Positions 2,120 through 56,967 of a stretch of DNA of 64,000 nt are shown piece by piece. This DNA comes from Eledone cirrhosa (Eukaryota), in assembly GCA_964016885.1 (NCBI GenBank), contig CAXHJY010000861.1, forward strand, positions 258,667-322,666, written 5' to 3'. The translations under genes were made by a program, and so were the position numbers. The first letter of the stretch is position 1. Each line of letters opens with the position of its first letter. A model generated the notes under the pieces. That model ran no database searches and was not told the DNA's origin. It was given only the letters and a program-made list of their open reading frames with translations.

Positions 2120-2552
2120 ACTACTACTACACACACACACATATTTGTTTTGAAAGACTTATTTTTCAATGACTTCTCAATCAGCCGACACAAACCTACA
2201 TTTGGCGCAAAATCAATTTTTTACATTCACATGACCTCTACCGACCAATCAAAATTGTTTTGACCACAAGAATTTTTGCAACACGAATTGGCGCAAAACT
2301 TATTTTAATACCGCTGGAGCCACGTTTTTAACATAAAAACAGGTAGAATTTCCAAAACTAATCAGATTAGAGCAAACATCACGAATGCTCTATCTCAAAA
2401 TTATTTTTGAAAAGCATTAGAAATGCGCAACCGGTAAAACTTAAAACCAAAACTGAATACTAACCAATACTATTACTAATTCTCACTTATTCCTAATTAA
2501 ACTATTTTTCACTGTGAATAATTTGTCAGCATTTTCTTTTCCGTTTACCAAT
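2120..2552 (+). repeat. Inverted pseudo-LTR segment at the 5' truncation point of Penelope-like element 1
   Basis: Reverse complement of 13000-13520, which is contiguous with sequence matching this element's 3' UTR (14085-14122 resembles 121-159). Confidence 0.7.
2404..2439 (+). ncRNA. Variant or degenerate minimal hammerhead motif
   Basis: TTT-TTGAAAA-GCAT(TAGAA)ATGC-GCAA-CCGG-TA-AAA; U3-A8 core, GCAA instead of GAAA, weak stem I. Confidence 0.45.
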
Positions 2553-11700: not shown

Positions 11701-12356
11701 TTTCTGCTACCATGATTCCTACTCCACCCAGCCCAGAAAAGCTTATTACATCGTTTTTTACCCTCAATGAATCTAGCAGACCCACTCCTCCACCTGGTCT
11801 CTTGAATACAACAAACATTGACCTCCTTACGTTCAAGCATTTCTACAACCTCGTTAGCGTGACCCTTTAGGGTGCCTACATTTATGGTACCAACTCTGAA
11901 GTTTTGGATTGCGTTTGGAGGGTGGGGGCGGTGGGGGGCGGGGGGAGATGGGGTTATGTTAGCCGCCCGCGGTCGAAACAAAGAGGAGTGCTCGCATTCT
12001 CGTCCACGAGGTGAATTTGTTTTTAACTTTGGCATTTTCGCTGAGCGTCCAGATTTTTCTCTCTCTTCCACTCTCCAGGATTCCGCAGTCCATCCATCCA
12101 TCCATCCATCATATATCGAAAGGCAACCGGGCAAGCGATAGTATAGGCCTCTGGCTTATGATTGGTCCGCGTAATAACAATGGTGCGGGGGGGGGGGGGG
12201 CTCTGGCGTATGATTGGTCCACGTAATAACAATGGTGGTGTGTGGAGGTGGGTGGGAGGGGTGTGGGGTAGCTAGCTGGAAGGTTAGGATTGTTTAACAA
12301 GCGATTAACAAAAAAACAAAAATGCAGGATTTGTTCTGTTCAATACGACAAAAACA
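8753..12356 (-). mobile_element. RTE family A LINE, near full-length, frameshifted, 3' end missing
   Basis: APE endonuclease (GTINVGT, CIQET, GDLNGHVG, QVDYIL) and RT (FVDLEKAFD, GVHQGSVLSP, YADD); highly similar to 38749-41931. Confidence 0.96.
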
Positions 12357-14157: not shown

Positions 14158-17100
14158 CACTTCATGAGTGTTCGCGGTCAGCCACCCCACTCTACATCAT
14201 GCGGCCAAACTCCCCCCCCCCCTTTTCTCTCTCTATCTATATATCTTCTCCCCCTCCACCACTTCATGAGTGTTCGCGGTCAGCCTCCCCACTCTACATC
14301 ATGCGGCCAAACTCCCCCCCCTTCTCTCTCTCTATCTATATATATAAGATAACACCCACAAGTAATCACATTCGCCAAATTCGTGGCTGTTTTTCCTTCA
14401 CGGTATAATGTAATGTACACATTTTTCTTGCATTTCTACAATCCGCTTAATTTCATAGTCCATCCAATCCGACAATTCTATAGCATTTTCTATCCTTCGA
14501 TTCCAATCCTTGCTTCACTACTCGCTATTCTATCCTATTTCCAAAACAAATCCTCCTGTATTCTGTATTTTGTCGTATTTTCCAAAACAAATATTGTATT
14601 TTTTGTTATTGCTTGTTAAATACGAAGTTTTTGTCGTATTTTACAAAACAAATCTTGTATTTTTGTTATCGCTTGTTAAATACGAGGATCTTACTTAAAC
14701 CTAATCTTCTCGCTAACAACTCAACACCCCTCCTGCCCGCCCCCACGCACCACCATTATTATTACGTGGACCAATCATAAGCCAGAGGCCTATACTATCG
14801 CTTGCCTGGTCGCCTTCGATATGACGGATGGATGGACTACGGCATTCTGGAGAATTGAAGAGAGAAAAATCTGGACGCTCAGCGACAATGCCAAAGATAA
14901 AGACAAATTCACCTCGTGGACGAGAATGCGAGCACTCCTCTTTGTTTCGGCCGCGAATGGCTAACATAACCCCATCTCCCCCCGCTCCCCACCGATCCCA
15001 CCCTCCAAACGCAATCCAAAACTTCAGAGTTGGTACCATGAATGTAGGCACCTTAAAGGGTCGCTCTAACGAGGTTGTAGAAATGCTTGAACGTAAGGAG
15101 GTCGATGTTTGTTGTATTCAAGAGACCAGGTGGAGGGGAGGGTCTGCTAGATTCATTGTGGGTAAAAAACGATGCTATATGCTTTTCTGGGTGGGAAATG
15201 ACAATGGGCTGGGTGGAGAAGGAATCATGGTAGCAGAAAAGTGGGCAGATAAGATAATAGACGTAAATAGAGTGAACGACAGAATAATTAAAATAAGACT
15301 TGTCCTCAATAGAACTACGGTGACAGTAATATCTGCGTACGCACCCCAATCCGGACTGCCCGGCACTATAAAAGACAGATTCTATGAGACACTGATGCTC
15401 ACTACCTCCCAAATAACCGACAGTGACTATATAATTATTGCAGGCAACCTAAATGATCACGTTGGACAACATTGTGACGGCTACGACGAAATCCATGGAG
15501 GCTATGGGTTTGGTACTAGAAATGAGGAAGGCTCCAGAATCCTGGAATTCTGTGACGCAAATAACCTAACTATCTGTAACACTAACTTCAAAAAACGTGA
15601 CAATCACCTGATCACCTATAGATCGGGGGAACACACAAGCCAGGTAGATTATATCCTTACCAGAAGACGTGACAGAGTGTCTGTTGTAAACACTAAATCC
15701 CTCCTCCATGAAGAATGCACCTCCCAACATAAACTGATAATTAGCGACCTAATAGTCAGGACGAGACGTACTAGACAACAGAAGAGTACTATCCTCAGGA
15801 GAAAAATATGGAAGCTAAAGGACCCCACAGCCAGAAATAAATTCAAAAGTATATTACTTGATGCTTTTGACAGTAAGAGCAATTAGAGTCGTACAATATA
15901 GAGGAGCAGTGGGAATTTCTGAAAGCAAACCTGCTGATGGCTGCAGACGAAGTCTGTGGCTGGAGCAGGCCTGTAGGCAGGAGGAGAGTAACATGGTGGT
16001 GGAACAGTAAGGTGGAGGGGTCAATTAAGGCCAAAAAGCAGGCTTGGAAAGTATGGCGGGATGGGGGAAGTACAGAAGACTATCAAGTGGCCAGGAGGGA
16101 AGCTAGGAGACAAGTGTACTTAGCAAGAAGGGAAGCAGAGGAAAGAAAGTTCAAGCATGTTCTACAACGCGAGGACCAAAAACGTGAGGTGTTCAGGATT
16201 GCTAGGCAATGTGTCAAGGAAAACCGTGATATTGTCGGGGAGAAGTGTGTACTTAATGATGACGGCGTACTTGCCATCACCGACGCTGATAAGAAGGTAG
16301 CTTGGAAGTGTCACTATGAAAGGCTACTAAATGAGGAGAATAAATGGGAGAAAGACAGTCTCCCCCACATTGACCCAATAGAGGGACCAGCAGTGTTAAT
16401 CGAGGGTAGTATAATAAGTAAGGTAATCAAAGATATTAAGACGGGTAAGGCGGCTGGGCCTTCGGAAATAGTTGCCGAGATGCTGAAGGCATCTGGTACG
16501 GTGGGACACACCATGGTCACCCGGATAGTTAACCAAGTCGTACAGAATGGGGTTGTTCCGAAGGACTGGCGTAGCAGCATCATCATTAACTGTTATAAGG
16601 GTAAAGGAGATGCCCTAGATAGGAGTAACTATAGAGGCATTAAATTAATCGACCAGGTCATGAAGGTCACGGAAAAAGTAATAGCGCAACTAATCAGAGA
16701 GAGAATTGATCTAGATGAAATGCAGTTCGGGTTTGTGTCAGGCAAAAGTACCACAGACGCTCTTTTCATTGTACGACAACTACAGGAGAAGTACCTAGCT
16801 AAAAGTAAACCCCTATACTTAGCTTTTGTCGACTTGGAGAAAGCCTTCGACAGAGTCCCCCGTTCCATTATCTGGTGGGCTCTTAGAAAACTAGGTGTTG
16901 ACGAATGGCTTGTGAGAGCTATACAAGCCATGTATAAAGAAACAGTCAGCAAGGTTAGAATTAACAACGAATATAGTGAAGAGTTTAGCGTAAAAGTTGG
17001 CGTCCATCAGGGCTCTGTTCTCAGCCCCCTACTATTTATTATTGCCCTTCAGGCTATAACAGAAGAGTTCAAGACCGGTTGCCCATGGGAACTCCTATAC

Positions 17101-18111
17101 GCAGATGACCTAACACTCATAGCTGAATCAATGGCCGAGCTAGAGAAGAAATTCCAAACATGGAAGCACGGCCTAGAATCAAAAGGCCTTAAAATTAACC
17201 TGGCTAAGACTAAAGTTCTAGTTTGTAAGAAAGAAAATAAGGCGGCGGTCCCTTCCGGGAAGTGGCCATGCTCAGTGTGTAGGAAAGGCGTAGGTAGAAA
17301 CTCCTTTTTGTGTCCCAAATGCAAAGTATGGGTGCATAAAAGATGTAGTGGGATCACAGGTAAGCTAACTAAGAACACAGATATTACATGTGGCCGGTGC
17401 TCTGGTGCAATAAGTAGCAGCAAGTGCCCACAAAATACTAGCTCTTTCAACTGCGCAGAGGGTTCTATAGAAATAGTGGACAGCTTCCATTACCTGGGTG
17501 ACAAAATCAGCAGTGGGTGAGGGTGCTCTGAAAGTACAGTAGCTAGAGTCAGAACTGGATGGAAAAAGTTCAGAGAGCTTATACCACTATTAGCCGCTAA
17601 AGGGTTCTCCCTAAAAATGAAAGGAAGGTTGTATGATGCCTGCATACGAACAGCAATGTTGCATGGCAGTGAGACCTGGGCATTGTGTGCAGAGGATATA
17701 CGCAGACTAGAGAGAAACAAAGCTTGCATGCTCCGCTGGATGTGTAATAGTAATATATGTGAACGGCAAAGCATAAACGAACTAAGGAAAAAATTAGAAA
17801 TAAGAGGGATCAGATGTTGTTTACTCGAGAGAAGGCTACGTTGGTATGGTCACGTGATGCGCATGAAGGACGATAGCTGTATAACAAAGTGCAGGGCAAT
17901 AAAGATAGATGGTAGCCACGGAATAGGCAGACCCAGAAAAACCTGGGACGAGCTGATAAATTCCGACCTCACACACTTACACCTCACCAAGACAATGTAA
18001 CTGGACCGAGACCTTTGGTGGTACTCAGTAATAGAGAAGACCCGCCTTACCTAAATACAAAGTAAAACCTACTACAGTCAGTAGGCATCTCTAACAAAAT
18101 ACACCCCCGTC
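14158..18111 (+). mobile_element. RTE family A LINE with long 5' UTR, disrupted ORF, 3' end missing
   Basis: ORF pieces 14888-15886, 15937-17520, 17617-18000; 5' region resembles 38035-38750; ~100-bp tandem duplication at 14158-14345. Confidence 0.96.
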
Positions 18112-21100
18112 AGTTTCTGTTTTGACATGTCCTGGTGTGATGTTGAAGAGAGCAGGGCCAATTGAGGTGAAATAATTGTGCCGTATTGTTGTTATGAGTT
18201 GCGATTTAGAGTTTTGTTTGGGATGGATAGCACGTGGCCCAAGCCTTGGGTGTATTTTGAAGGTGATGCCAACATCATTTGGGCAGTGCTGATGAAACAT
18301 TTTCCACATCATGCAGATAATATAACGCTCACGGCGACGTTGGAGTAAGTAAAGTTTCAGCTTTTCTAGTTGACCCCAGTAGTCAAGGTCTGACATGCCA
18401 TCTATCTTTTTCATGATTGCCCTTTGGGGAGCTTCAAGTTTCATGATACTTTGTTTCATGTAGGGAGACCACAGTGGACAACAGTATTCAAGGTGTGGTC
18501 GGGCAAAAGAGAAGGATAATGGTGTGGGAATCTCTCGACTGGAAGATTCTGAGGATCCAGGAACACATTCTGCGGGCCATGTCAACTTTGCTGCTTATAT
18601 GCGTGTTCCAGCTTATGTTGCTGTCCACGGTTACTCCCAAGTCTCTGGTGTTGTTAGATGCCACGAGAGTTTCACCGGAGGGAAGGGAGTACGGGAGTTT
18701 CAGAGCATCCTCTTTTCCAAAGTGGATCAGTTCGAATTTGTCTTCGTTCAGTAACATGTTGTTCTTTTCCGTCCATTGAGTAACAGCCAGTAGGTCTGAC
18801 TGAAGGCTTATCCGGTCATCCACGCCATTGATGACCTTTTGGAGCTTGGAATCATCAGCGAAAATTCTAATGTTGCTGTGTCTGATGATGTCAGTGATGT
18901 CATTAATATAAATGATGAAGAGAAGTGGGCCCAACACAGTGCCTTGTGGGACCCCACTACTGGCTTTGGCTGGGCTGGATTTGACTCCTTCGACTACATG
19001 TTGGGTTCTGTTTGACAGGAAGCTCTTGATCCACTGCAGCAGCTTTCCAGTGACACCAATATTGGACAGCTTTCTCAGTAGAATGTTGTGATCAACCCTG
19101 TCAAAGGACTTGCTGAAATCAAGGTAGATAACATCAGTGTTGGAACCCTCTCCCAAGGCTCTCAAAATGTCATCAAAGTGATGCAGTAGCTGCGTCAGGC
19201 AATCCCTTCCATTACGGAATCCATGCTGGTTGGAGTTCAGCATATTGTTACTCTCAAGGAAGTGAGTCATTCGCGATCTCACCACTCTCTCAAATACCTT
19301 AATGATATGAGAGGTGAGTGAGATTGGACGGTAATTCACGGCAAGGGATTTGTTTCCTCTTTTGAAAACTGGGACAACAGACTGGGATAGGTTTTCTGGC
19401 ACATATCCAGCATCCAGTGAGTTCCGCCACAGATTGGCAAGAGGAGATGCAAGTTGGTGTTGACACGCCTTCAAGACACAAGCAGGGAACCTATCGGGAC
19501 CTACTGCTGAATTATGCTTGATTTCCTTTATTGCTGCTAAGACACCAGGGGCGCCAAACGTTATGTCCGATAAGGTGTAATGGGGAGTAACATCGCCGAT
19601 ACAGCCCAGATCGGCCATATCAGGATTGCTGAAAACAGAGCAGTATTGTTTTTGCAGTATTTCACCCATGGTTTTAGCATTGTCTTGAAGAGTGCCATTT
19701 TCATCAATTAGAGGGCCAACAGTAGAGCCAGTGATTTTGTGTTTTTTTGCAAATGAAAAGAACACTTTGGGATAGAGTTTGATCTTCTCAATGGCCAAGG
19801 CCTCTTCAGCTAATCTCTGATTGTTGATGATAGACATCATATTGTTTTGGAGGTTATGTTTTTTAATTTCTAGTGATGAAATGGCAGTCAAGTTGATGTG
19901 TTGCTGCTGACAGTATTTCAGCTTGTTGATTTTTTTTGTTAGTTCTCTTAATTTTCCTGATGAGCGTTTTTCTATTTCTAGGGATTCTGCTCTTAGATTT
20001 GTTTATACTTCTTAATGGGGTGTGTTTTGCACATATGATTGTAACAGTGTCCACAAATGTCTGCCAGGACTTTTTGATGTTAGTGGGTGTGTGAGTGTGC
20101 GTGAAGGACCAGTCGACATGTGCAAGATCATGACTGATCGCTTCCCAGTTTGCATTGTGGAAATCCATAGCGTCAAACGGATGGACAGGAGAGATGACAT
20201 TGGGTTTGTATATTGGACGGTGGAATCTCAGATCACAGAGAACCATGTCATGATTAGAGAGTAGAGTTTTCTCCACTGCAATATTGTGGGTAGTGTCAGT
20301 GTGATTGCTGAAAATTAAGTCTAGGACGTTTTTGTGGCACCTCGTTGGTTCGAGCACCAGTTGGGACAGGAAGAAATCATCCATGAAGTCAAGAAGCAAT
20401 TCCACTGCTTCCCTGTCAGAGGTTGAGGCAGAAGAACCTGGTGGCAGGCTGTTTGTGGACCAGTCAACTCCGGGGAGGTTGAAGTCCCCCATCATTAAGA
20501 TGTTGTCAGGGTGACACTCTTGGATGAAACACTTTATGCTGTTGAGGCATTCCTTGAAGCATGGTACAGGCGTTTGGGGTGGCCTATAGAGCCCAACTAC
20601 TATTAGGTTGTTGGTTTGACTGAATACAGTGACTGCTTCGCAGTATCCATTAGTAAATTTGTTCATAGCCTCTGTTGAGAAAGAATTATGGACATAAATG
20701 GCAGTCCCACCCTTTCTTCTGCCAGCGCGATCAGCACGGATGGCTTTGAAATTTTTCACTTTCACCTCGGCTTCCAAGTGGAGGTTACTGAGATGGGTTT
20801 CAGTGAGGACGAAGAAAGGGATGTGGTTTGGATGGACATCAACCCAGTCCTCCAGGAATTTGATTTTCCATTTTTGAGTATTGGTGGAAGGGCTGATGCC
20901 TTGGGCGTTAAGCAAAAATGTTGAGGCGAGAGTGGATGGTTTTAATTGTTTTGGTGTGTTGTTAATTTGTTTGTTTGTTAATGGCAGCAATGGGAGTTTG
21001 TGCAGTGGGGTGATAGTGGAGGGTGGTGCTGGGTGATAGCTCAAATGTTTTTTTTCCAGTTCTTTTGCCAGATTCATTATGGCTAAAAAAGAGGAAGAAT

Positions 21101-22407
21101 TTTCCTGTTTAGGAGACTGTTGGTGACTGTGGTAGTGGTTATTTTTATGTAGGTTATGGTTTTTGTTTTTGCTTTTATTTTTTTTTCATTTGTCCGACGG
21201 GTCCCCGGGAGTTGGGTAAAGGGACAATCCCAGTGTAAACACAATCTGTCTCGCAGGGAAAAACGGCAGATTTGTGGATTCCTTGTTTGAGTTATTGGTG
21301 GTTGTGTTGGTGTTAAATTAGAACATGTATTATGGTGGTGGCTGTTTGTGGGGATAGACCGTTTTGTCCTAGGTAAATGGGTGAATTTGCAGCCACTATC
21401 CTTACATATTCTATAGCGTAGAGAGTAGCGGCAAATGATGGGGTTTCGAGTGGGTGTGTATGTGTGTGTGTGTGTTGTGAGAGGTGTAGATGATAGTTTG
21501 AGTAGGTTTTGACGACCTTTGTGGGCTGTGGGAGGGAGAGTTCTTGTACTGGTATTAGAAGGTAAATTCCTTAAGATAGCAGTAGGCAAAGATGTAGTAG
21601 TAGTATTAGTAGGCAGAGGAGATGTTGGCAGTGGTGATGATTGGACTGCTGGGGCAGAGAAAGGAAGAAGCGTTTCCTGCTGTGAGACAGTGGCTACTGG
21701 GAGGTCAATAGTTTCATTTAGTAGTTCGGCCATTGTTGATGAATCAAGGAGTGGTTCACACTGTTGTTGTTGTTGTCGTTGTTGTTGTTGCTGTTGTTGT
21801 TGTAGCTGTTGTTGTTGTTGCCGTTGTTGCTGCTGTTGTTGTTGTTGCTGCTGTTGCTGCTGCTGGACAGCATTCGAAGAAAAAACACACAATAGTTTAT
21901 CCAAATGTTTATTGATTAATTTAAAAGCAACTTCGATTTGCTTTAATTTATTTTGAATCTGTTGTTCAGATCGGGTTTTCAAAAGGTGAACTGTACGTTT
22001 AGCAATTTCGTTCAGACATGAAGCATCTATGTCTTCTGTTTGGGTAAGGCAATGCCATGTGTTTATTAGAATGTCGATTTCATTATCAGACCAGTTCTGT
22101 TTGGATTTTTCCTGGTTAGCCATTCTAGTTTTGAGTGTGTGTGTTTTAGTTAAGTATTTCAATATATATATATATATTGTTTTTTTTTTTTGTTTTTTTC
22201 TTGTGTGTGATTGAGAAGTGTATATATAAATATGAGTATATATAAATAAATATATTCTGGTTATTTCAAATTAATGAAATTAATGAAAAGACGAAAGTAT
22301 ATAATAATTTGTAGTTAAAGGAATATGTACTCACAAGTTGGTAAACACGTGGTTTCAAATATATAAGAATATAGATGTATGTAAATGTAATTGACCGGTC
22401 AATTTGG

Positions 22408-23974: not shown

Positions 23975-25694
23975 CATCATCATCATCATCATCACCGTTT
24001 TACGTCCGTTCTTCCACGCTAGCATGGGTTAGACGGGTTGTCCTGTTGTGGGCAGTGTCTGGTCGGCTGACCATGCCTTGCTCATACAGGAACTGATCTG
24101 GCTTGATTTCTACAGCTGGATGCCCTTCCTAACACCAACCTCATTTACAGTGAGTGCTGGGTGCTTTTTCGTGGCGCCTACACGTCCACTTTACAGTGTG
24201 GGCTGGGTGCTTTTTTGCCGTGGCACCTCCACGGCCACCTTGCGGTGGAGGGGGGGCGGCATATTGTTTATATGCTTCAGCATGTACCCATGGGAGGTCG
24301 GGTACCCTGTATTACTGCGTGACGCCAGAAGTCACGGTCGTGTGTCATTGACTTTGAGAGGTGTAGTTGGGTAAGGTCGGCTTTTATCACCTCATCCCAA
24401 GTCATCTTGGGTCTCCCCACTCCGCGGTTTCCATCAACTTCTAGTGCTCTGCACCTTTTTATGCAGCTGTCATCCTTCATACGCATCACATGTCCATACC
24501 AGCGTAACCGCCTCTCCTGCACGCAGCATTTGATTCCTCTTATGCTCAGTCTCTCTCTCAATTCCTTTATGCTTTGTCGTTCACGTATATTACTGTTACA
24601 CATCCATCGGAGCATGCAGGCTTCGTTTCTCTCTAATCTACGTAAGTCTTCCACCTTCAGCGCCCAGGTCTCACTACCATGCAACATCGCTGTTCGGATA
24701 CACACATCATACAGTCTGCCTTTCATTCTGAGGGAGAAGCCTTTTGCAGCTAGCAGTGGTAGTAGTTCCCTAAACTTCTTCCATCCCGTTCTTACCCTAG
24801 TTATTGTACTTTCTGAGCACCCACCTCCGTTGCTAATTCGGTCACCTAGGTAGCAGAAGCTGTCTACTGTTTCTACAGGGCCCTCCCGGAGATTGGTGGT
24901 ACTTGTTTCCTGTGGCTGTTTGCTTGCTGTTTCAGCACAGCTGCTGCATGTGAATCCTACATTCTTAATTAAGCTTCCTGAGATCCCGCTACATCTCTTG
25001 TGTACCCATTGTTTGCATTTGGGGCAGAGAATGGAGTTTCTACCTACACCTTTCCTACATACTGAGCAAGGCCATTTCCCTGAGGGGATCTGGGTTCTGT
25101 TTTCTCGTCTACTTACAAGGACCTTAGTCTTTGTCATGTTGACTTTGAGGCCCTTTCTCTCTAGTCCCTGCTTCCAGGTTTGGAATTTATTCTCTAGTTC
25201 TACCATAGATTCAGCTATGAGTGCGAGGTCATCAGCATACAGGAGTTCCCATGGGCATCCGGTCTTAAACTCCTCCGTTATTGCCTGCAGGACTATGATG
25301 AACAGGAGAGGGCTAAGAACAGAGCCCTGGTGGACCCCAACCTGTACGCTAAATTCCTCGCTATACTCATTGCCAATCCTAACTTTGCTGACTGCTCCCC
25401 TATACATGGCTTGTACCGCTTTCACAAGCCATTCATCTACTCCTAGTTTTCTAAGAGCCCACCAGATTACTGCACGTGGAACTCTGTCAAAGGCTTTCTC
25501 AAGGTCGACAAATGCCAAGTAGAGTGGCTTACTTTTAGCTAGGTACTTTTCCTGTAATTGCCTCACAAGGAAGAGGGCATCAGTGGTGCCTTTCCCTGGT
25601 ACAAACCCAAATTGCATCTCGTCTATATTCACCCGGTCCCTAATCAGCTGTGCTATAACTCTTTCTGTTACTTTCATGACCTGGTCCATCAACT
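23975..25694 (-). mobile_element. RTE family B, 5'-truncated RT with PHD-like insert
   Basis: Open frame 24277-25694 with FVDLEKAFD, YADD, CSVC..CPKCKQWVHKRC..CSSC; own 3' UTR and (GAT)n tail. Confidence 0.95.
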
Positions 25695-25858
25695 GTACAT
25701 GTATATATATATATGTGTGTGTGTGTGTGCATGTATATATATATATATATATACATGTATATATATATATATATGTATGTATATATATATATATGTGTAC
25801 ATACACATGTATATATATATATATATATATATGTACATGTATATATATATATATATAC

Positions 25859-26252
25859 ATAAAATATTAAAAAAATAATGAATAAAACAAAGAAACAGTT
25901 CCTTATATTAAACAATAATTATTTCTGAAGACAGCATATATATGTGATGGTATGTATATACTCCTTGATAGTTTGTATAATTTTGTACATAGATCTTTTG
26001 AATATGCATGCCAATTCTAACACATATATGTCCTAGAAACGATCGTTAAATAATGAACTTTTTTTGTTTAATATAAGGAACTGTTTCTTTGTTTTATTCA
26101 TTATTTTTTTATATTTTATCTTGACTCTGTATTCCGTTTATCTTTCACCGAAAGTGATTTTTGAATGCATCTCTTCTTTCCATGATATCCGGATTACATT
26201 GAGTTCTTCATACGGATTGGACACTACCGTAAACTTTTGGTAGATTTATCTA
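25859..26252 (+). mobile_element. Short non-coding hammerhead-bearing unit with ~52-bp inverted repeat (probable PLE terminal remnant)
   Basis: 25859-25911 is the reverse complement of 26068-26119; hammerhead lies between them; TA flanks. Confidence 0.65.
25918..26054 (+). ncRNA. Type I hammerhead with ~100-nt stem II region
   Basis: AUUAUUU-CUGAAGA-[..AUAUAUGUG..CACAUAUAU..]-GAAA-CGAUCG-UU^-AAAUAAU; 7-bp stem I; palindromic stem III. Confidence 0.75.
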
Positions 26253-27247: not shown

Positions 27248-27333
27248 TATATATGTATATATATGTACACATGTATATATATATATATGTGTACATACAC
27301 ATGTATATATATATATATATAGGAACAAGTAAG

Positions 27334-27427
27334 ACCCCGACGGCTGAGCTCAAGCCGTTTCGACGGCTAATTCTGTACTGAATGAAAGTTTATTCTGGTA
27401 TTTAAATAGCCGAACTTATCAAGGGGT
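27334..27427 (-). ncRNA. Type I hammerhead, U3-A8 core variant (sense copy)
   Basis: ACCCC-UUGAUAA-G..CGGCUA..UAGCCG..C-GAAA-CGGCU(loop)AGCCG-UC^-GGGGU. Confidence 0.85.
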
Positions 27428-30400
27428 AATTCCATATATGGTCAAAGAGATAATCACCAGGATTGGTCACATCACAAGTTAGTAGTAAATCTGTGATGGC
27501 AAGTTGGTGGGGGAAGGGGTAGCTAAACCTGCCGGTAGGAGAAAAAGGGAGAGGGGGTGGAGTAGACCCATTCATGCGTTGGTAGTGCCAGCTACAGCTG
27601 GGTGTGAGGTCAAAGAGGATACTGGGGAGGGGGAGGGGGAGGAGGTCGAAACGTTAAGTAGAACAATGAAAGGTAAAACTATAAAAGGTACTGAGAGAAA
27701 AAAAAAAAATAAGCCAATTCTGGTGACTAAGACTTAAGTCACTCGCTATTGCTAGGCTAAAGAAATACATAAATAAATAAATAAACAAATAAGTGAATAA
27801 AAGAATAGATAAATAAATTTAAAAAAAAATTTAAAAAAAAAATATATATATATATATATATAATGTAGAATAAAAAAAAATATATATATATATATATATA
27901 ATGTAGAATAAAAAAAAATATATATATATATATATAATGTAGAATAAAAAAATAAATAATAATAATAGAAATAAACTAGGTGGGACGGAAATAAAGGGAC
28001 CCTTATACGAGGTATAAGTGCGTGTATCGTACGGTGACGGGTCAACAAAGGGGGGGCCAGAATACTAAAGAGACTACCACGAAAATAATAAAGGTTTCTA
28101 CCCCAAACACAGGGCCAGCAACCACCCAGTGCAAGAAAGTAAACTAGTACGAGAATATAATTCAGGGTCCCGCAAAAAAATACTAGTGCTAACTCTAAGG
28201 GTACCGCGAAGAAACAAAAAGTCTTATAGAAGCTACATGAAAAATCGGACGAAGTAAAAGTAAAGAACGGAAAATTAATACAGGAACCCCCCCCCCCCAA
28301 AAAAAGGGAAAAAGAAAAAAGAGATACTGGATAAACGAGAAATTAAAGCAAAGATGCCACTAAGAAATATAGAAGGCACGGAAAAAAGAGACAGCGGTCG
28401 GAGAAGGGGGCGAGTATCCGAAGTCTAACACCTCTGCTATAAAAAGCGGAGTCAGCCAAATCTATCATAGAATAGGGGAGGGGGTGGGGGTGCTGAAGCT
28501 ACAAGGGACCGATGGGCTACCTCGGGTGGGCGAGAAAAAGACGACGACAAAGAAAGGGAACTGGGGTAGAAGGACTAGGGGGGGGATGGGGGAGAATGAG
28601 GAAATATAGAGGAAGCGATAAAAGAATGTAAAAGAAGATCTTACGTCTCCATAGGCAAGCAGGGGTTACCCATTACAAAATAGGCAAGTGGGGTGTTATA
28701 GCCCTAGTCTACCCCCCCCCCCCCCCGAGTCATTATGGGGTTTGAGGGCGAGGTAAGTCCTACGTAATTGGTGTTTACATGCAGTAACCAGTTCATCTTT
28801 CTTGTTTAGGAGTTGGTCCGTCGAAAACAGCATTTGTAATGTTTCCTCCGAGCATAAGTTGCACGGACGGCGTCCTCCCGTGTAAGAGTTGGCTCTGGAC
28901 AGTAATTTCCAAGTGAGATCATAGTTGATGTTGTTGTCCTTGAGGTCCCATATGTGGCCCGGAAGTGTAGTGGCGTGACGCCGGGCCGGGTTTCGGAAGG
29001 TATGTCTGTGTTGGTATAGCCGGGTCTTGAAGTCACATGCAGTTAATCCTATATAAGCTTTGTTGGAGGTGTCCGTGCTCACGTTGCACTGGTAGATCAC
29101 ATTACGGTCTCTGCATCTGTTGTCGAGGGGGCAACTGGATCTATCAGGACAGTTGCACCTCCTGGTCGGCTCTCCACTGCTATTTAGGTTGTTTCATCCA
29201 TCGGGGTTGAGTTTTTTGTTGTTGGAGGAGACGATGTTTTGTGCGAAATTAGGTGTAGTGCTGTAAGAGAGTTTGATGGTATTTTTGTTAATTATGTTGT
29301 GGTAGCGGTGTTGTGGTGGGAAGTGTTTTTCAATGAGCCTAAAGAAAATTTTCCCGATGGGAGTTGTCACCTCGGCGTTGTGGGGAGGATTGAACCATGT
29401 TACATTGCGTGAGCGGCGGTGTCGCTGGTTCCGCTAATGGGAGCTGGACAGTAGGATATTTCCTCCCGGAAACCACTCCGCTTGAGGGCCTGGTTGTAGT
29501 AAGGCGCATGTTCATCGAATATCTTCTCATTGGCTGACAAACAGGATATACGGAGGGAGATGTTTTTGACCAGGTTGTTGGTGATGTTCCTAGGATGGTT
29601 AGATCGGCGGTGGATGTAGTGCAGGTTGTCATTGGGTTTCCTGTATGGGTAGTACCGGTCATTGAGATCGAGGGTAACGTCCAGGAAATTAACTCGGGTC
29701 AGGGACGTTTGTAGGGTTATTTTAAATCCCCAGTTGCGGAAGAAGCTGATTAATTGTTTACGGACCCGATCTGTACTACTGGGGTTGTACCCTTTAAGGG
29801 TAAGGAGCCCATCATCACGGTACAATCCAGCACCGAAAGCAGGAAACATATCGGTGAGTTTGGCTATAAGGAATAATCCTATAAGATCTGTGACCTCCGC
29901 CGAATCCATAGCGCCCATGCTGACGTCGAAGGGTGAGTCAGGAGCTCTTTTTATCCATTTGGAGTTGTCAAAGAGTAAGACTGTCTTCCTGGCGTGGAGG
30001 ATGATTTTTCTTTCCTGGTCAGTGATGGGCACAAGTGCTTCGGCGAAGTCCAAGGCGGCAGTAAGTAGCGGTAAGGTGATGGAAGCATAGTAGCTCTCTA
30101 TGTCGAACTGGATAAATTTAGTGTCTCGTTTATCCTCCAAATTGCTGAACCATGAGATAACTTCCTGTGTGTTGATCCATAAGCGTGTTGCTTGACTTTA
30201 GGTATCATGCGGTCTAGGATTTTTTTGCTGATTCTCCCTATGTCGGACTTCGTTGGGTTTATAAGCCTGATAGATGGTTTACGGTCGAAATCGGATTTGT
30301 GGTCCTTCAGTGTGAAGTAGGGTGTCCGTGGGTCTAGGGGTTCGGTGCGGTCGGCGACCCCGAGGCTGGAGGTAATTTGTTGTCCATCTCGATTAATGTC

Positions 30401-30778
30401 CTCGATGCATGAGTGGTTGGCCTTTTTATAGGTGGAGTTTAGGCTGCTCCTGATCAGTGTGTGATATCTGTCGGGGTTGACAAAGTATAGGTTCCCAGTT
30501 TTATCCGAATGCACCATGATGTCATTGGTGTTATCATACTCTGTTAAGTTGCTACGGAGTTTTTGTAGGAATCGGTTGTGTCTGGGTTTGAATTTAAGGT
30601 TCTTGACCAGTTGGAAGAGGTCATTCTCGAAGGGTGAGGGCAAGGGGTTCGGGGGGGAGATTTGTAGGTAATAAATCCGAATCTCTCCTTGGTACCGAAG
30701 TCTTGGTTGTCGCAGATTTTCTACTAACTTGTGATGTGACCAATACTGGTGATTACCTCTTTGACCATATATGGAATT

Positions 30779-30872
30779 ACCCCTTGATAAGTTCGGCTAT
30801 TTAAATACCAGAATAAACTTTCATTCAGTACAGAATTAGCCGTCGAAACGGCTTCAGCTCAGCCGTCGGGGT
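30779..30872 (+). ncRNA. Type I hammerhead, U3-A8 core variant (inverted copy)
   Basis: Same as 27334-27427; GUC cleavage triplet at 30865-30867. Confidence 0.85.
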
Positions 30873-31026
30873 CTTACTTGTTCGTATTACCCACTCTACT
30901 ACCCTAAGTATTGAGTACTTTGGTGCGTTATGGTCCACCTGGTTCCTTACCACATTTCCTTTGTTATATATATATATATGTGTACATGTACATATATATA
31001 TATATATGTACATATATATATATATA

Positions 31027-31066
<40 letters not shown>

Positions 31067-31180
31067 TATATGTACATGTATATATATATATATATATATG
31101 TGTACATACACATATATATATATATATATGTACATGTATATATATATATATATGTACATGTATATATATATATATATGTA

Positions 31181-38502: not shown

Positions 38503-38631
38503 CGTGGACCAATCATAAGCCAGAGACCCCCCCCACACGCATCACCATTATTATTATTATAAGCCAGAGACCCCCCCCCCCCACACGCATCACCATTATT
38601 ATTATTACGCGGACCAATCATAAGCCAGAGG
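38503..38631 (+). promoter_or_regulatory. Tandem CCAAT-box repeats in the RTE-A 5' UTR (putative internal promoter)
   Basis: GGACCAATCATAAGCCAGAG occurs twice plus a partial copy; also at ~14768 and 12150-12222. Confidence 0.45.
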
Positions 38632-38748
38632 CCTATACTATCGCTTGCACGGTTGCCTTCGATATATGATGGATGGATGGATGGATGGACGGACTGCGGA
38701 ATCCTGGAGAGTGGAAGGGAGAGAAAAATCTGGACGCTCAGAGCGAAA

Positions 38749-41700
38749 ATGCCAAAGTTAAAGTCAAATTCACCTCGTGGACGAGAATGCGAGCACTCCT
38801 CTTTGTTTCGCCCGCGGATGGCTAACATAACCCCATCTCCCCCCGCCCCCCACCACCCCCACCCTCCAAACGCAATCCAAAACTTCAGAGTTGGTACCAT
38901 AAATGTAGGCACCCTAAAGGGTCGCGCTGACGAGGTTGTAGAGATGCTTGAACGTAAGGAGGTCGATGTTTGTTGTATTCAAGAGACCAGGTGGAGGGGT
39001 GGGTCTGCTAGATTCATTGAGGGTAAAAAACAATGTTATAAGCTTTTCTGGGTGGGAAACGACGATGGGCTGGGTGGAGTAGGAATCATGGTAGCAGAAA
39101 AGTGGGCAGATAAGATAATAGACGTAAATAGAGTGAACGACAGAATAATTAAAATACGACTTGTCCTCAATAGAACTACGGTGACAGTAATATCTGCGTA
39201 CGCACCCCAATCCGGACTGCCCGGCACTATAAAAGACAGATTCTATGAGACACTGATGCTCACTACCTCCCAAATATCTGACAGTGACTATATAATTATT
39301 GCAGGCGACCTAAATGGTCACGTTGGACAACATTGTGACGGCTACGACGAAATCCATGGAGGCTATGGGTTTGGTACTAGAAATGAGGAAGGCTCCAGAA
39401 TCCTGGAATTCTGTGATGCAAATAACCTAACTATCTGTAACACTAACTTCAAAAAACGTGACAATCACCTGATCACCTATAGATCCGGGGAACACACAAG
39501 CCAGGTAGATTATATCCTTACCAGAAGACGTGACAGAGTGTCTGTTGTAAACACTAAATCCCTCCCCCATGAAGAATGCACCTCCCAACATAGACTGATA
39601 ATTAGCGACCTCATAGTCAGGACGAGACGTACTCGACAGCAGAAGAGGACTATCCTCAGGAGAAAAATATGGAAGCTAAAGGACCCCACAGCCAAAAATA
39701 AATTTCAAAACATATTACTTGATGCTTTCGACAGTAAGGAAGAACATTTAGAGTCGGACAATATAGAGGGACAGTGGGAATTTCTGAAAGCAAACCTGCT
39801 GTTGGCGACAGACGAAGTCTGTGGCTGGAGCAGGCCTGTAGGCAGGAGGAGAGTAACATGGTGGTGGAACAGTAAGGTGGAGGGGTCAATTAAGGCCAAA
39901 AAGCAGGCTTGGAAAGTATGGCGGGATGGGGGAAGTAGAGTAGACTATCAAGTGGCCAGGAGGGAAGCTAGGAGAGAAGTGTACTTAGCAAGAAGGGAAG
40001 CTGAGGAAAGAAAGTTCAAGCATGTTCTACAACGCGATGACCAAAAACGTGAGGTGTTCAGGATTGCTAGGCAATGCGTCAAGGAAAACCGTGATATTGT
40101 CGGGGAGAAGTGTGTACTTAACGATGATGGCATACTTGCCATCACCGACACTGATAAGAAGGTAGCTTGGAAGTGTCACTATGAAAGGCTACTAAATGAG
40201 GAGAATAAATGGGAGAAAGACAGTCTCCCCCATATCGACCCAATAGAGGGACCAGCAGTGTTAGTCGAGGGGAGTATAATAAGTAAGGCAATCAAGGATA
40301 TGAAGACAGGTAAGGCGGCTGGGCCTTCAGAAATAGTTGCTGAGATGCTGAAGGCATCTGGCACGGTGGGACACACCATGGTCACTCGCATAGTTAACCA
40401 TGTCGTACAGAATGGGGTTGTTCCGAAGGACTGGCATAGCAGCATCATCGTTAACTGTTATAAGGGTAAAGGAGACGCCCTAGATAGGAGTAACTATAGA
40501 GGCATTAAATTAATCGACCAGGTCATGGAGGTCACGGAAAAAGTAATAGCGCAACTAATCAGAGAGAGAATTGACCTAGATGAAATGCAGTTCGGGTTTG
40601 TGTCAGGCAAAAGTACCACAGACGCTCTTTTCATAGTACGACAACTACAGGAGAAGTTCCTAGCTAAAGGTAAACGCCTCTACTTAGCTTTTGTCGACTT
40701 GGAGAAAGCCTTCGACAGAGTCCCCCGCTCCATTATCTGGTGGGCTCTTAGAAAACTAGGCGTTGACGAATGGCTTGTGAGGGCTATACAAGCCATGTAT
40801 AAAGAAACAGTCAGCAAGGTTAGAATTAACAACGAATATAGTGAAGAGTTTAGCGTAAAAGTTGGCGTCCATCAGGGCTCTGTTCTCAGCCCCCTACTAT
40901 TTATTATTGCCCTTCAGGCTATAACAGAGGAGTTCAAGACAGGCTGCCCATGGGAACTCCTATACGCAGACGACCTGACACTCATAGCGGAATCAATGGC
41001 CGAGCTAGAGAAGAAATTCCAAACATGGAAGCACGGCCTAGAGTCAAAAGGACTTAAAATTAACCTGGCTAAGACCAAAGTTCTAGTTTGTAGGAAAGAA
41101 AACAAGGCGGCGGTCCCTTCTGGGAAATGGTCGTGCTCGATGTGTAGGAAAGGCGTTGGTAGAAACTCCATTTTATGTCCTAAATGCAAAGTATGGGTGC
41201 ATAAAAGATGTAGTGGGATCACAGGTAAGCTAACTAAGAACATAGATTTTACATGTGGCCGGTGTTCTGGTGCAATAAGTAGCAGCAAGTGCCCACAAAA
41301 TACTAGCTCTTTCAATTGCGCAGAGGGTTCTATAGAAATAGTGGACAGCTTCCGTTACCTGGGCGATAAAATCAGCAGTGGGGGAGGGTGCTCTGAAAGT
41401 ACTGTAGCTAGAGTCAGAACTGGTTGGAAAAAGTTCAGAGAGCTTATACCACTATTAGCTGCTAAAGGGTTCTCCCTAAAAATGAAAGGCAGGTTGTACG
41501 ATGCCTACATACGAACAGCAATGTTGCATGGCAGTGAGACCTGGGCATTGTGTGCAGAGGATATACGCAGACTAGAGAGGAACGAAGCTTGCATGCTCCG
41601 CTGGATGTGTAACAGTAATATACGTGAACGGCAAAGCAGAAACGAACTAAGGAAAAAATTAGAGATAAGAGGAATCAGATGTTGTTTACTCGAGAGAAGG

Positions 41701-41931
41701 CTACGTTGGTATGGACACGTGATGCGCATGAAAGTCGATAGCTGTATAACAAAGTGCAGGGCAATAAAGATAGACGGTAGCCACAGAATAGGCAGACCTA
41801 GAAAAACCTGGGACGAGCTGATAAACTCCGACCTCACACACTTACACCTCTCCAAGACAATGTCACTGGACCGAGACCTTTGGCGGTACTCAGTAACAGA
41901 GAAGACCCGCCTTGCCAGTAGGCATCTCTAA
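38749..41931 (+). CDS. Intact APE endonuclease-reverse transcriptase with internal PHD-type finger (~1060 aa)
   Basis: No stops; first ATG shared by all long copies at 38749; YADD 40963-40974; C4HC3 motif 41134-41265. Confidence 0.95.
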   Translation: MPKLKSNSPRGRECEHSSLFRPRMANITPSPPAPHHPHPPNAIQNFRVGTINVGTLKGRADEVVEMLERKEVDVCCIQETRWRGGSARFIEGKKQCYKLFWVGNDDGLGGVGIMVAEKWADKIIDVNRVNDRIIKIRLVLNRTTVTVISAYAPQSGLPGTIKDRFYETLMLTTSQISDSDYIIIAGDLNGHVGQHCDGYDEIHGGYGFGTRNEEGSRILEFCDANNLTICNTNFKKRDNHLITYRSGEHTSQVDYILTRRRDRVSVVNTKSLPHEECTSQHRLIISDLIVRTRRTRQQKRTILRRKIWKLKDPTAKNKFQNILLDAFDSKEEHLESDNIEGQWEFLKANLLLATDEVCGWSRPVGRRRVTWWWNSKVEGSIKAKKQAWKVWRDGGSRVDYQVARREARREVYLARREAEERKFKHVLQRDDQKREVFRIARQCVKENRDIVGEKCVLNDDGILAITDTDKKVAWKCHYERLLNEENKWEKDSLPHIDPIEGPAVLVEGSIISKAIKDMKTGKAAGPSEIVAEMLKASGTVGHTMVTRIVNHVVQNGVVPKDWHSSIIVNCYKGKGDALDRSNYRGIKLIDQVMEVTEKVIAQLIRERIDLDEMQFGFVSGKSTTDALFIVRQLQEKFLAKGKRLYLAFVDLEKAFDRVPRSIIWWALRKLGVDEWLVRAIQAMYKETVSKVRINNEYSEEFSVKVGVHQGSVLSPLLFIIALQAITEEFKTGCPWELLYADDLTLIAESMAELEKKFQTWKHGLESKGLKINLAKTKVLVCRKENKAAVPSGKWSCSMCRKGVGRNSILCPKCKVWVHKRCSGITGKLTKNIDFTCGRCSGAISSSKCPQNTSSFNCAEGSIEIVDSFRYLGDKISSGGGCSESTVARVRTGWKKFRELIPLLAAKGFSLKMKGRLYDAYIRTAMLHGSETWALCAEDIRRLERNEACMLRWMCNSNIRERQSRNELRKKLEIRGIRCCLLERRLRWYGHVMRMKVDSCITKCRAIKIDGSHRIGRPRKTWDELINSDLTHLHLSKTMSLDRDLWRYSVTEKTRLASRHL

Positions 41932-44299: not shown

Positions 44300-47200
44300 T
44301 TAATGACCATGCTGTAAAATGGAGGGGTAGAGAGGGCCCTTGAGTCTAGTAAGACATCCTCTCTAGTGCTGGTGGCACAAATAAAAGCACCCAGTCCATG
44401 CTGTAAAGTGGCGCTGGTGTTAGGAAGGGCATCCAACCAGTGTATCAATGCCAAAAAGCTTATCAGCACAGCAACAAAACAGCATAGAAAAATATGAAGA
44501 CGTCGCATCTCAGAGTTGCAACACTTAATGTTGGCACTCTCAGAGGTAGATCTGCTGAAATAGCGGAGATGCTGGAGAGAAGGCAGGTGGATGTGTGCTG
44601 CGTGCAAGAGGTGAGATGGAGAGGTGCCTCTGCGAGACTAGTCGTAGGCAAGCGTCTTAGCTATAAGCTATTCTGGGTAGGTAAGGATGATGGGTTAGGG
44701 GGAGTAGGCATTTTCCTGGCTGAGAAATGGATCAATAAGACAATAGAGGTAGTTCGAGTTAGTAATCGAATAATTAAGCTTAGATTAGTTGTAGGTAGGA
44801 GACTACTGACAATCATCTCGGTCTATGCTCCCCAAGCAGGCCTAGGCATAGATGAGAAAGACTGCTTTTATGAGCAACTTTTGCAAACAACCACAATGAC
44901 AGAGGACGGAGACATCTTTATGCTAGCAGGAGACTTCAATGGTCATGTTGGACAGCTCCAGGATGGTTACACTGGGGTACTTGGTGGGCACGGTTACGGT
45001 TCAAGAAATGAAGAAGGCGTGAGACTTCTTGAATTTTGTGATGCAAGTACATTGACTATTTGCAACACAAACTTCCAGAAACCTGCCAATCACCTAATAA
45101 CCTACAAATCTGGTGAGCACATAAGCCAGATTGACTTCCTGCTAGTTAGGCAGCGGGACAGGCAGATAGTGTCTAATACCAAGGCATACCCTGGGGAAGA
45201 ATGTACCCCACAGCATAGGTTAGTTGTTAGTGATATCTCAGTAAGCAAGGGATGGAATGAGACATATAGGAAGGTGTGGAGAAGAAAGGTCTGGAAGCTA
45301 AAAGACCTTTCACTAAAATTCAAATTTAGGAAAGCCCTTCAAGATGTATATGACGAAAAAGAAGACGATTTAGAGACGTATGACATAGATAATAACTGGA
45401 AGTTCTTACGTGACAACTTGCTGAAGGCTACTGATGAAACCTGTGGCTGGAGCAGAGCTCCAACCAGACAGAGAGTGACCTGGTGGTGGAACAGCAGTGT
45501 AGATAAGGCTATTAGAGACAAAAGACTAGCATGGAAGGCTTAGAATAAGGGTGGGAGTAGGGAAGAATATACAGCCACTAAGAGAGAAGCTAGACGTCAG
45601 GTGTACTTAGCACGCAGGGAGGCAGAGAGTAGGAGGTTTGCCAATGTTCTGCGACGGGAAGATCAGAGGCGTGCGGTGTTCCACATTGCAAGGCGGTGTG
45701 TCAATGCAAATCAGGATGTTGTTGGTGATAAATGTGTCCGGGATGATGCCGGTGTACTTAGTGTCACGAATGACCAGAAAAAGGAGGCCTGGAAATGTCA
45801 TTATGAGAGACTGATGAATGTGGAGAACGAATGGGAGAGAGAGAAATTACCCTTGGTAGATCCGACAGAGGGACCAGCTATTGAGATTGACGAATATAGG
45901 GTCCAAGAGGCGATTAGGGAAATGAAAAATGGTAAGGCGGCCGGACCATCGGGAATAGTTGCTGAGATGCTGAAGGCATCAGGGGACGTAGGCAGTAAAC
46001 TGGTTGCACGCATAATCAATCAGGCTATATATGGTGGTGTCATACCCAAAGACTGGTGCAGCAGTATTCTCATAAATTGCTACAAAGGTAAAGGGGATGC
46101 TTTGGAGAGGAGCAATTATAGGGGTATAAAACTGATAGATCAGGTTATGAAAGTGGCAGAAAGGATTTTAGCACAACTAATTAGAGAAAGGGTCAAACTA
46201 GATGATGCAGTTTGGTTTTGTGCCTGGGAAGAGTACAACAGATGCCCTCTTCTTGGTGAGACAAATGCAAGAGAGGTTCTTAGAGAAGAATAAGCCACTA
46301 TACTTAGCCTTTGTTGACCTAGAGAAGGCCTTTGATAGGGTACCCCGATCTGTCATCTGGTGGTCCCTAAGGAAGCTGGGTGTTGAGGAATGGCTTGTAA
46401 GGACAGTGCAAACTTTGTACAGAGGTACTCTCAGTAAAGTCAGGGTAGGAATGGAGTTTAGTGAGGAATTCCAGATACAAGTAGGAGTACATCAGGGTTC
46501 GGTCCTCAGCCCGCTCTTGTTCATTATAGTCCTCCAAGCCATAACAGAGGAGTTTAAGACTGGCTGTCCATGGGAACTTCTCTATGCTGACGATCTGGCT
46601 CTTATGGCAGAATCAGTAGAGGAGCTAGAGAATAAATTCCGGCTATGGAAACAGCAGTTGGAAGCAAGAGGACTGAGAGTAAATCTAGCTAAGACAAAAG
46701 TGTTGATGAGTAGAAAAGAGGACAAAACCCTGATTCCGTCAGGGAAATGGCCATGTTCGATATGCAGAAAAGGAACAGGCATAAATTCTATAAAATGCAC
46801 ACAATGTAGGTCCTGGGTACACAAGAGATGTAGCGGGATAGCAGGCAAACTAACAGGTAGGGAGAAATATGTATGCAGTAGATGTACAGGGAAATTAGAC
46901 AGTAGAAGTCGCACTGATAGACACATTTTTCAAATGCGAGAGGGCGCTATAGAAGTGGTGGATAGCTTCCGGTACCTAGGAGATCAGATTAGCATGGGAG
47001 GAGGGTGTTCCGAGGCCATAGTATCTAGAATAAAGACGGGTTGGAAGAAGTTTAGGGAGCTGCTTCCTCTGTTGACGAAGAAGGGTTTCTCCCTGCGTAC
47101 GAAAAGCCGGTTGTATGATGCCTGTGTGAGGAGCGCGATGCTGCATGGTAGTGAGACATGGGCAGCTACCGCGGAAGATATGCGACGGCTGGAGAGAAAT

Positions 47201-47579
47201 GAGGCAAGCATGCTCCGTTGGATGTGCAGTGTAAATGTGCGTGAACGACCCAGCATAAATGTGTTGAGAGAGAAACTGTGTCTGAGAGGGATAGAATGTA
47301 GTGTACGGGAGAGGAGACTGAGGTGGTACGGACATGTGATGCGCATGGAGGATGACCGATGGGTGAAGAAGTGCCAGGAAATGCCAGTTGAAGGAAGACG
47401 TGGTAGAGCTAGACCACGAAAAACATGGGCGGAGGTGGTGAGAACAGACCTCAGATCATTGAAGCTCACGGTGGAGATAACGAGGGACCGTGACGAGTGG
47501 AGAGATGCTGTGCTGAATAAGACCCGTCCCACCCTTGCAAGCAGGGAAAAGCGGACGTAAAATGATGATGATGATGATG

Positions 47580-51461: not shown

Positions 51462-51573
51462 ATATATATACATATACATTTTGAGTTTATGTTGGTTGTA
51501 TACCAACACCTCAGTATGCAGGCTGGAGCACTCGACGAAGTGCGCAGGTTGGTTTGGTTACTCCGGAGTAGTG

Positions 51574-51839
51574 TAAAATAAAGTTAAATAAAAGTCAAAT
51601 GATTAAAATTTAGCTTCGTTTATTACTGCTATATATATTTCAATGACAGCCATCTTTGGCTGTGACCTCTTCAGGCAGTTTGAATTAGTATGCTAATTCA
51701 AACTGCCTGAAGAGGTCACTGCCTGAAGAGGTCACAGCCTGAAGAGGTCACAGCCAAAGATGGCTGTCACTGAAATATATATAGCAGTAATAAACGAAGC
51801 TAAATTTTAATCATTTGACTTTTATTTAACTTTATTTTA
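51574..51839. repeat. ~265-bp palindrome made of two back-to-back hammerhead cassettes
   Basis: Centre at 51690/51691; arms nearly perfect; right arm has GCCTGAAGAGGTCAC three times. Confidence 0.92.
51626..51678 (-). ncRNA. Type I hammerhead (left arm); mirror copy on + at ~51703-51787
   Basis: CUGC-CUGAAGA-GGUC-ACAGCC(AAAGAU)GGCUGU-CAUU-GAAA-UAUAUA-UA^-GCAG. Confidence 0.8.

Positions 51840-56967
<5,128 letters not shown>

Follow-up and report, generated by a model that had tools for sequence, protein, structure and literature searches.

The window analyzed in this study is a 64,000-nucleotide (nt) stretch of Eledone cirrhosa DNA (contig CAXHJY010000861.1, positions 258,667 to 322,666, forward strand). 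Within it lies a dead Penelope-like element (PLE) whose minus-strand open reading frame (ORF) encodes a reverse transcriptase (RT) and an endonuclease, and whose two ends carry, on opposite strands, a hammerhead ribozyme motif with a U3-A8 pair in its core. The element and its flanks comprise the following features, in window positions.

27250-27321, no strand: (TA)n-rich left target flank (sequence)
27323-27496, minus: left arm, the 3'-terminal 174 nt of the sense copy (inverted-repeat comparison)
27427-27334, minus: 3'-end hammerhead motif of type I, in sense orientation relative to the ORF (descriptor search, fold)
27497-28695, minus: long 3' untranslated region or spacer, 1.2 kb, pyrimidine-rich (no coding homology)
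28696-30711, minus: dead Penelope-like ORF with RT, CxCx5C linker and C-terminal GIY-YIG endonuclease (translations, homologue alignment)
30710-30722, no strand: 13 nt where the truncated ORF meets the inverted arm, legible as ORF and also matching the 3' arm at 11/13 positions
30710-30883, plus: right arm, an inverted duplicate of the 3' end joined to the 5' break (inverted-repeat comparison)
30779-30872, plus: second hammerhead copy, antisense to the ORF (descriptor search, fold)
30869-30892, plus: predicted hairpin competing with stem I (fold)
30884-30964, plus: one-sided tail of about 80 nt on the inverted copy only, followed by (TA)n (sequence)
30893-30918, plus: tail motif RCTC-N(9-26)-GAGYAC, here RCTC-N16-GAGYAC (pattern search)
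30964-31180, no strand: (TA)n-rich right target flank (sequence)

The hammerhead motif and its host element

A descriptor with a C/U-UGA-N-R-A core and an internal loop allowed in stem II returned seven rows from both strands of the 64 kb, two of which were the focal hammerhead pair; with an ungapped stem II, both copies are missed. Each motif is 94 nt long, and sequence and descriptor search agreed on the full-size U3-A8 hammerheads that the preliminary description had placed on opposite strands at both PLE ends. Both copies have the core UUGAUAA, GAAA and a GUC triplet, and U4, G5, A6, A9, G12, A13, A14, A15.1-U16.1, H17 and the 3-8 pair are all kept. Stem I has 5 bp, stem II consists of G10.1-C11.1, a 2x1 internal loop and 6 bp closed by a 37-nt loop II, and the 6-bp helix III is closed by a 7-nt loop. 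The descriptor search thus recovered the stem lengths, the triplet, the long loop II and the intactness of both copies that had been noted before. Scissile bonds are predicted at 30867/30868 in the plus copy and 27339/27338 in the minus copy. The single difference between the two hammerheads (30855/27351) falls in loop III; they are one motif duplicated, and the second copy adds no independent evidence.

The three-way hammerhead junction is the minimum free energy (MFE) fold of each copy (-23.7 and -23.8 kcal/mol), and 3 and 6 of 200 shuffles, respectively, folded equally stably. In the MFE fold and the pair probabilities, the helices are arranged around the core and open at helix I, and a distal extension of stem I with an internal loop is predicted. 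The G10.1-C11.1 pair has a probability of about 0.1. As a chance control, 400 dinucleotide shuffles of the 3569-nt element, searched on both strands, gave 16 loose matches and none of the observed strength. No canonical loop I-loop II contact was recognizable, and a pseudoknot between loop II and the tail was rejected, as the best 9-nt complement of loop II in the flanks was matched by 125 of 500 shuffles, which is chance level. Rfam returned nothing at gathering score for the whole window, and none of the 30 matches that it gave for 27250-31000 at E values of up to 10 was a hammerhead. As the minimal C3-G8 motifs of the window likewise lacked a gathering match, the Rfam models are insensitive here. 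The sequence confirms the hammerhead as a motif; self-cleavage is a prediction.

The ORF fragments align end to end with homologues of about 710 amino acids (RT plus C-terminal GIY-YIG). About 46 N-terminal residues have been lost, frameshifts occur near 30650, 30185 and 29430, and an in-frame stop lies at 29194-29196; with three frameshifts and a stop, this copy of the element is dead. Of 2325 candidate proteins, 414 matched the RT fragment at E≤1e-20, the best with 54% identity, and the N-terminal fragment matched 2044 proteins at E≤0.001, mostly starting near residue 45 to 55. By tblastn at E<1e-5, all 120 listed homologues matched only the minus strand, covering it between 30711 and about 28729, and the arms encoded nothing homologous. 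The right arm was considered as the start of the ORF and rejected, as no homologue supports this reading. Pfam had no match for four ORF fragments.

The Hydra clade of PLEs is defined in PMC8557442 by DKT, a CxCx5C linker, CxxC and CxH in the endonuclease, and insertion into (TA)n. Fragment 30098-30796 reads SDKT, with DKT in place of DKG; DKT or DKS occurs in 93/120 homologues and ADKG in none of the 120. Fragment 28696-29193 contains the linker (present in 102/120 homologues) as well as CxxC and CxH around the E and N of the endonuclease, and the N-terminal RWK motif, found in 79/120 homologues, falls in the part lost to truncation. Judged by these sequence motifs and the (TA)n flanks, the element is a Hydra-clade PLE. 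In a by-eye comparison, its RT looks closer to Hydra-1_Obim of Octopus bimaculoides than to the clade consensus, which would fit a cephalopod host.

The spacer holds TA and poly-A repeats, including a threefold repeat near 27830-27960. The minus strand of 27300-28800 was searched for an additional canonical hammerhead closer to the stop codon, and no further core was present. Retrozymes of the non-LTR kind (LTR, long terminal repeat) have short tandem repeats, a canonical type I hammerhead and no ORF. The element is not of this kind: one inverted pair flanks an RT ORF, and the window contains no tandem copy.

Comparison with other hammerheads

A U3-A8 pair is a natural covariation of the hammerhead 3-8 pair (PMC3088659), and about 1,300 U3-A8 hammerhead matches are given for Schistosoma mansoni PLEs in PMC4209133. 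The proposal that UUGAUAA represents a compensatory exchange of C3-G8 agrees with both sources. Among the animal hammerhead examples listed in the supplement of PMC4209133, 2 of 56 have U3-A8 and 1 of 56 has U3-G8, and in our reading of the extracted supplement text none of their helix III segments is longer than about 10 nt. The 26 Hydra-clade rows of File S2 in PMC8557442 all have C3-G8 and a helix III of 3 to 4 bp.

A related set of 20 loci (L001 to L020), in which Hydra-clade PLE ORFs with hammerheads occur, was taken from contigs filed under bacterial genomes, 10 of the 20 from one assembly; these contigs likely represent animal host contamination of bacterial assemblies. After 10 near-duplicates and 10 poorly formed rows were dropped, 21 of the 41 rows scanned (16 loci) were kept and combined with 3 hammerheads from the window. 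All 24 have C3-G8, a helix III segment of 4 to 10 nt (focal motif, 19) and a stem II plus loop of 11 to 31 nt (focal motif, 54). A U3-A8-like core occurred in 6/10 dropped rows, four antisense inside PLE ORFs and two outside, and none of these had a helix III of more than 2 bp. Outside the PLE ORFs, L016:1030-1072 (+) is a possible minimal U3-A8 hammerhead with weak stems. The combination of U3-A8 with an enlarged helix III in an animal PLE was absent from the compared tables and a literature search; the variants of Lunse, Weinberg and Breaker lie outside this comparison. It is the combination of U3-A8, large helix III and large loop II that is unusual, as the layout and the core exchange were already known.

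Hydra-clade PLEs such as Hydra-1_Obim and Penelope-13_HM share with the focal element the C-terminal GIY-YIG domain, DKT, the CxCx5C linker and the (TA)n target, as well as a sense 3' hammerhead with a near-palindromic helix III (PMC8557442). Penelope-13_HM also has an inverted 5'-truncated copy, with hammerheads listed on both strands in the supplement of that paper. In contrast to the focal element, the Hydra-clade hammerheads described there have C3-G8, a helix III of 3 to 4 bp with a 1- to 3-nt loop and a small loop II, and the elements are mostly shorter than 3 kb.

The minimal hammerheads of S. mansoni Cercyon PLEs have U3-A8 and occur in opposite-strand pairs, and one listed example shares UUGAUAA. 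However, their helix III is essentially absent, dimers are thought necessary for them, and Cercyon belongs to another PLE clade (PMC4209133). As the clades differ, the U3-A8 exchange in Cercyon and in the focal element is likely independent. Fungal and protist PLE hammerheads, such as that of Serpula lacrymans, resemble the focal motif in being type I with a large helix III, no recognizable tertiary contact and a monomer fold; their hosts are endonuclease-less telomeric PLEs of nonanimals, and the comparison with them covers helix and fold features (PMC4209133). The PAc hammerhead of an Anolis Poseidon PLE likewise lies upstream of two element ends with an optional tail between them, and uncut RNA is inserted. 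However, it has C3-G8, needs a protein and overlaps the ORF start, and its tail is 30 to 40 nt long compared with about 80 nt here (PMC11167929).

Arms, tail and predicted RNA folding

The ends of the element form a 178-bp inverted repeat (27319-27496 and 30710-30887) with 172/178 identical positions. No third arm copy and no second spacer copy was present in the window, and neither arm nor spacer occurred in the 20 related loci. The left arm ends 16 nt past the cut site and is followed by one additional base and then (TA)n. The right arm begins exactly at the 5' truncation of the ORF, and the 13 nt that read both ways suggest a junction made by microhomology joining. These 13 nt carry 2 of the 6 arm mismatches, the mismatch at 30884 falls where the sense copy ends, and beyond the junction the arms differ at 3 positions in 161 bp.

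PLEs typically carry at their 5' end an inverted copy that is 5' truncated, and have a tail at one end only (PMC8557442, PMC3846280), and the legend of Fig. S4A in PMC4209133 gives the same opposite-strand hammerhead layout for a Cotesia PLE. Among the related loci, L013 has hammerheads at +5449 and -1782, with arms 3.5 kb apart and (TA)n ends, and in L019 the hammerhead upstream of a truncated ORF is inverted. The opposite-strand hammerhead layout is ordinary for PLEs.

Two further outward-facing inverted pairs were observed in the window, and no ORF was identified for either. The first is a 139-bp repeat (137/139 identical) at 56967-57105 (-) and 58733-58871 (+) with outward-facing hammerheads; 58781-58826 is its minimal C3-G8 hammerhead, and the left copy has lost A9. 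The second is a head-to-head pair (104/106) at about 51512-51839, centered near 51690 in TA-rich repeats, with minimal C3-G8 hammerhead-like motifs at 51679-51625 (-) and 51718-51788 (+), the core region of the latter being repeated three times.

Of 34 hammerhead positions, 11 (the focal one and 10 of 30 in the loci) have the RCTC-N(9-26)-GAGYAC motif of the tail within the 230 nt that follow downstream, compared with 27 of 1338 background blocks, for a pattern picked post hoc on data already seen. Its closing pair is A-U in the focal tail and G-C in all 12 instances in the related loci, which amounts to one compensatory change; the MFE fold of the focal window segment does not form this stem. 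The recurrence of the motif behind related hammerheads shows that the tail belongs to the element, and the hairpin is a candidate protein-binding or RT-start site. Besides 30893-30918 in the window, sites lie at L003:1780, L005:5882, L006:2003, L009:837 and 899, L004:1335 and 1398, L013:6280(-), L016:4374, L019:2903(-) and 2580(-), and L007:2668. In L004 and L009 the motif is doubled immediately before the next ORF.

The motif had been expected to fold as a monomer, unlike minimal PLE hammerheads. In isolation, stems I, II and III have pair probabilities of 0.93, 0.94 to 0.95 and 0.90 to 0.94 (right copy, 0.93, 0.94 and 0.94), and stem I of the sense copy reached 0.88 to 0.96 in seven of eight contexts and 0.05 in one. 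The predicted monomer fold therefore stands. However, helix III is still near-palindromic and dimers are possible, and monomer-active PLE hammerheads were already known from fungi (PMC4209133). In the sense copy, 18 of the 19 nt of the helix III segment (27358-27340) are self-complementary, making it nearly palindromic; in the right copy, the loop III palindrome is broken at 30855. Helix III formed in trans was more stable than two hairpins, by 16.5 kcal/mol for the left copy and 7.9 kcal/mol for the right, and the cofold keeps both cores. Only 508 of 16384 possible 7-nt loops (3%) hold a 6-nt palindrome. Minimal dimer-type hammerheads are recognized by a helix III that is absent or too short, which is not the case here (6 bp, pair probability 0.9), and by a palindromic helix III or loop III, which the sense copy has. 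The motif thus resembles a hammerhead of the dimer type that has been enlarged.

On the plus strand, the predicted stem I probability was 0.80 to 0.96 in three 5' contexts and 0.41 in a fourth, and it fell to 0.02 to 0.17 once the transcript extended past 30891-30893, because the tail then engages stem I's 3' strand. Forcing stem I despite the tail costs 2 to 3 kcal/mol. The sense copy ends at the equivalent of 30883, within the loop of the competing tail hairpin. Transcripts with both arms would form a 174-bp duplex (-308 to -311 kcal/mol, compared with -35 to -36 kcal/mol when the ribozyme arm folds by itself), in keeping with the suggestion that the termini pair into a panhandle, for which we computed about -310 kcal/mol. 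As this panhandle would swallow the whole ribozyme and the complement is made first, cleavage would likely be suppressed in both-arm transcripts.

Insertion history and alternative explanations

We consider it probable that the motif, located at the 3' end of a Hydra-clade PLE that is now dead, is a predicted monomer-type hammerhead and that its opposite-strand twin is a by-product of insertion, not a selected feature. The element lies in (TA)n and is 5' truncated, and at the break it carries 174 bp of its 3' end in inverted form together with the 80-nt tail. The RNA that was copied was evidently uncut or religated, because both genomic copies continue across the scissile bond. In the Anolis element, insertion mainly uses uncut RNA, and two RT start sites bracket the tail (PMC11167929). 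By analogy, reverse transcription may have started at two sites, giving a sense copy ending at 27323 and a short tailed copy, and the two may then have been joined head to head through the 13-nt microhomology. The ribozyme could derive from the dimer-type motif of the clade, with the palindromic helix III lengthened and C3-G8 changed to U3-A8. Its cleavage is predicted to be slow to moderate as a monomer, to occur also as a dimer, and to be poor with the tail or the opposite arm in the same RNA.

Several points weigh against this interpretation. The enlarged U3-A8 motif is known from one copy of the family, which leaves the family standard and the ancestral state of the arms open to doubt. The core sits 1307 nt past the end of ORF homology, compared with 86 to 218 nt in 11 related loci, and with this distance a different origin of the terminal unit is conceivable. 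The two-start-site model is borrowed from another PLE clade, and cleavage of the hammerhead is a prediction. Tail shuffles did as well as the native tail in 6 of 300 (first 17 nt) and in 40 and 43 of 300 (63 nt) trials in the whole context, and in 93 of 200 trials in a local test of the focal case. A tail hairpin acting as a family-wide off-switch was rejected over the 24 other hammerheads (Fisher p=0.63; 1/24 at p≤0.05). Competition between tail and stem I is kept as a weakly supported model prediction for the focal RNA alone and is not conserved.

The preliminary description proposed that transcripts from either strand would be cut, and such a designed ambisense system, in which each transcript is cut by its own ribozyme and the ends form a functional panhandle, would account for the intact cores of both copies; bidirectional PLE transcription and antisense templates have also been proposed (PMC3846280). 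We regard it as highly improbable. The plus copy is an inverted 3'-end duplicate, the usual PLE insertion structure, whose inner boundary is the 5' truncation point. With 98% arm identity, core intactness needs no selection, and another pair in the window has lost A9 in one copy. Cutting of either strand also conflicts with the panhandle, because the 174-bp duplex would include the whole ribozyme. Furthermore, competition of the tail with stem I is predicted, the RNA that was copied was uncut or religated, and the ORF is dead. Nearly as improbable is the acquisition of the ribozyme end from another element, retrozyme-like or another PLE, joined through the 1.2-kb spacer. This spacer is about six times the length of those of relatives, whose ribozymes differ from the focal one, and captured spacers of 0.9 to 1.5 kb are described for Adineta Pen1 (PMC3846280). 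However, the tail motif recurs behind the hammerheads of related loci, the palindromic helix III pattern of the clade is retained, and no remnant core was found nearer the stop codon.

Two alternatives concern activity, and both are possible, if doubtful. The ribozyme might be mainly dimeric in vivo, as are other animal PLE hammerheads, with the palindromic loop III nucleating an intermolecular helix III. The self-complementarity of the left segment, the cofold dimer with both cores, the rarity of 6-nt palindromes in 7-nt loops and the near-palindromic 4- to 10-nt segments of relatives are consistent with this. In contrast, the monomer hairpin, with its pair probability of 0.9, would form first in transcription, the loop palindrome is lost in the right copy, and the locus has no tandem same-strand copy. 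With similarly tentative standing, the motif may fold and yet be nearly inactive at physiological Mg2+, serving a structural or protein-assisted role. The unrecognizable loop-loop contact, the U3-A8 pair, the weak base of stem II and the uncut focal template point this way, as does the Anolis PLE hammerhead, which needs protein and for which no reads end at the cut site (PMC11167929). However, every catalytic position is retained, the 3-8 pair being compensatory, stem I has a predicted distal extension that includes an internal loop, and a fungal PLE hammerhead with a long helix III and no recognizable contacts reaches 0.16 per min at 1 mM Mg2+ (PMC4209133).

Hammerhead retention by PLEs is puzzling, as the animal ribozymes barely cut and one tested element inserts uncut RNA. 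A hammerhead that is predicted to fold alone and yet was inserted uncut or religated is a test case for gated cleavage and a natural setting for gauging the cost of U3-A8. A more far-reaching version, which we think unlikely, is that a Hydra-clade lineage turned a dimer-only hammerhead into a free-standing, switchable one that, through its lengthened palindromic helix III, cuts as a monomer or after loop-loop pairing and is held off by the tail hairpin in precisely those RNAs used as reverse-transcription templates. If so, it would be an animal PLE ribozyme without need of a partner or protein and would offer a clean handle on hammerhead retention. The focal motif also exposes a blind spot, as Rfam and descriptors requiring CUGANGA and short loops miss it.

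Other retroelements were observed elsewhere in the window. A broken PLE ORF (DKG, RT, GIY-YIG) occupies 224-2158 (-), with no hammerhead in the 223 nt to the window edge. A minimal C3-G8 hammerhead at 6958-6914 (-) lies about 300 nt behind the stop codon of a PLE remnant with RT plus GIY-YIG (ORF 7260 to about 8750, minus strand). A non-LTR element at 18488-22270 (-) has a weak Myb/SANT-like ORF1 match, an endonuclease and an RT. Several non-LTR ORFs that encode an AP endonuclease, an RT and, downstream of the latter, a PHD finger lie at 8881-11842, 14825-18000, 24277-25866, 38563-41931 and 44488-47560. The copy at 38563-41931 is an open frame of 1122 amino acids, and the non-LTR copies are 96 to 98% alike and in inverted orientation.

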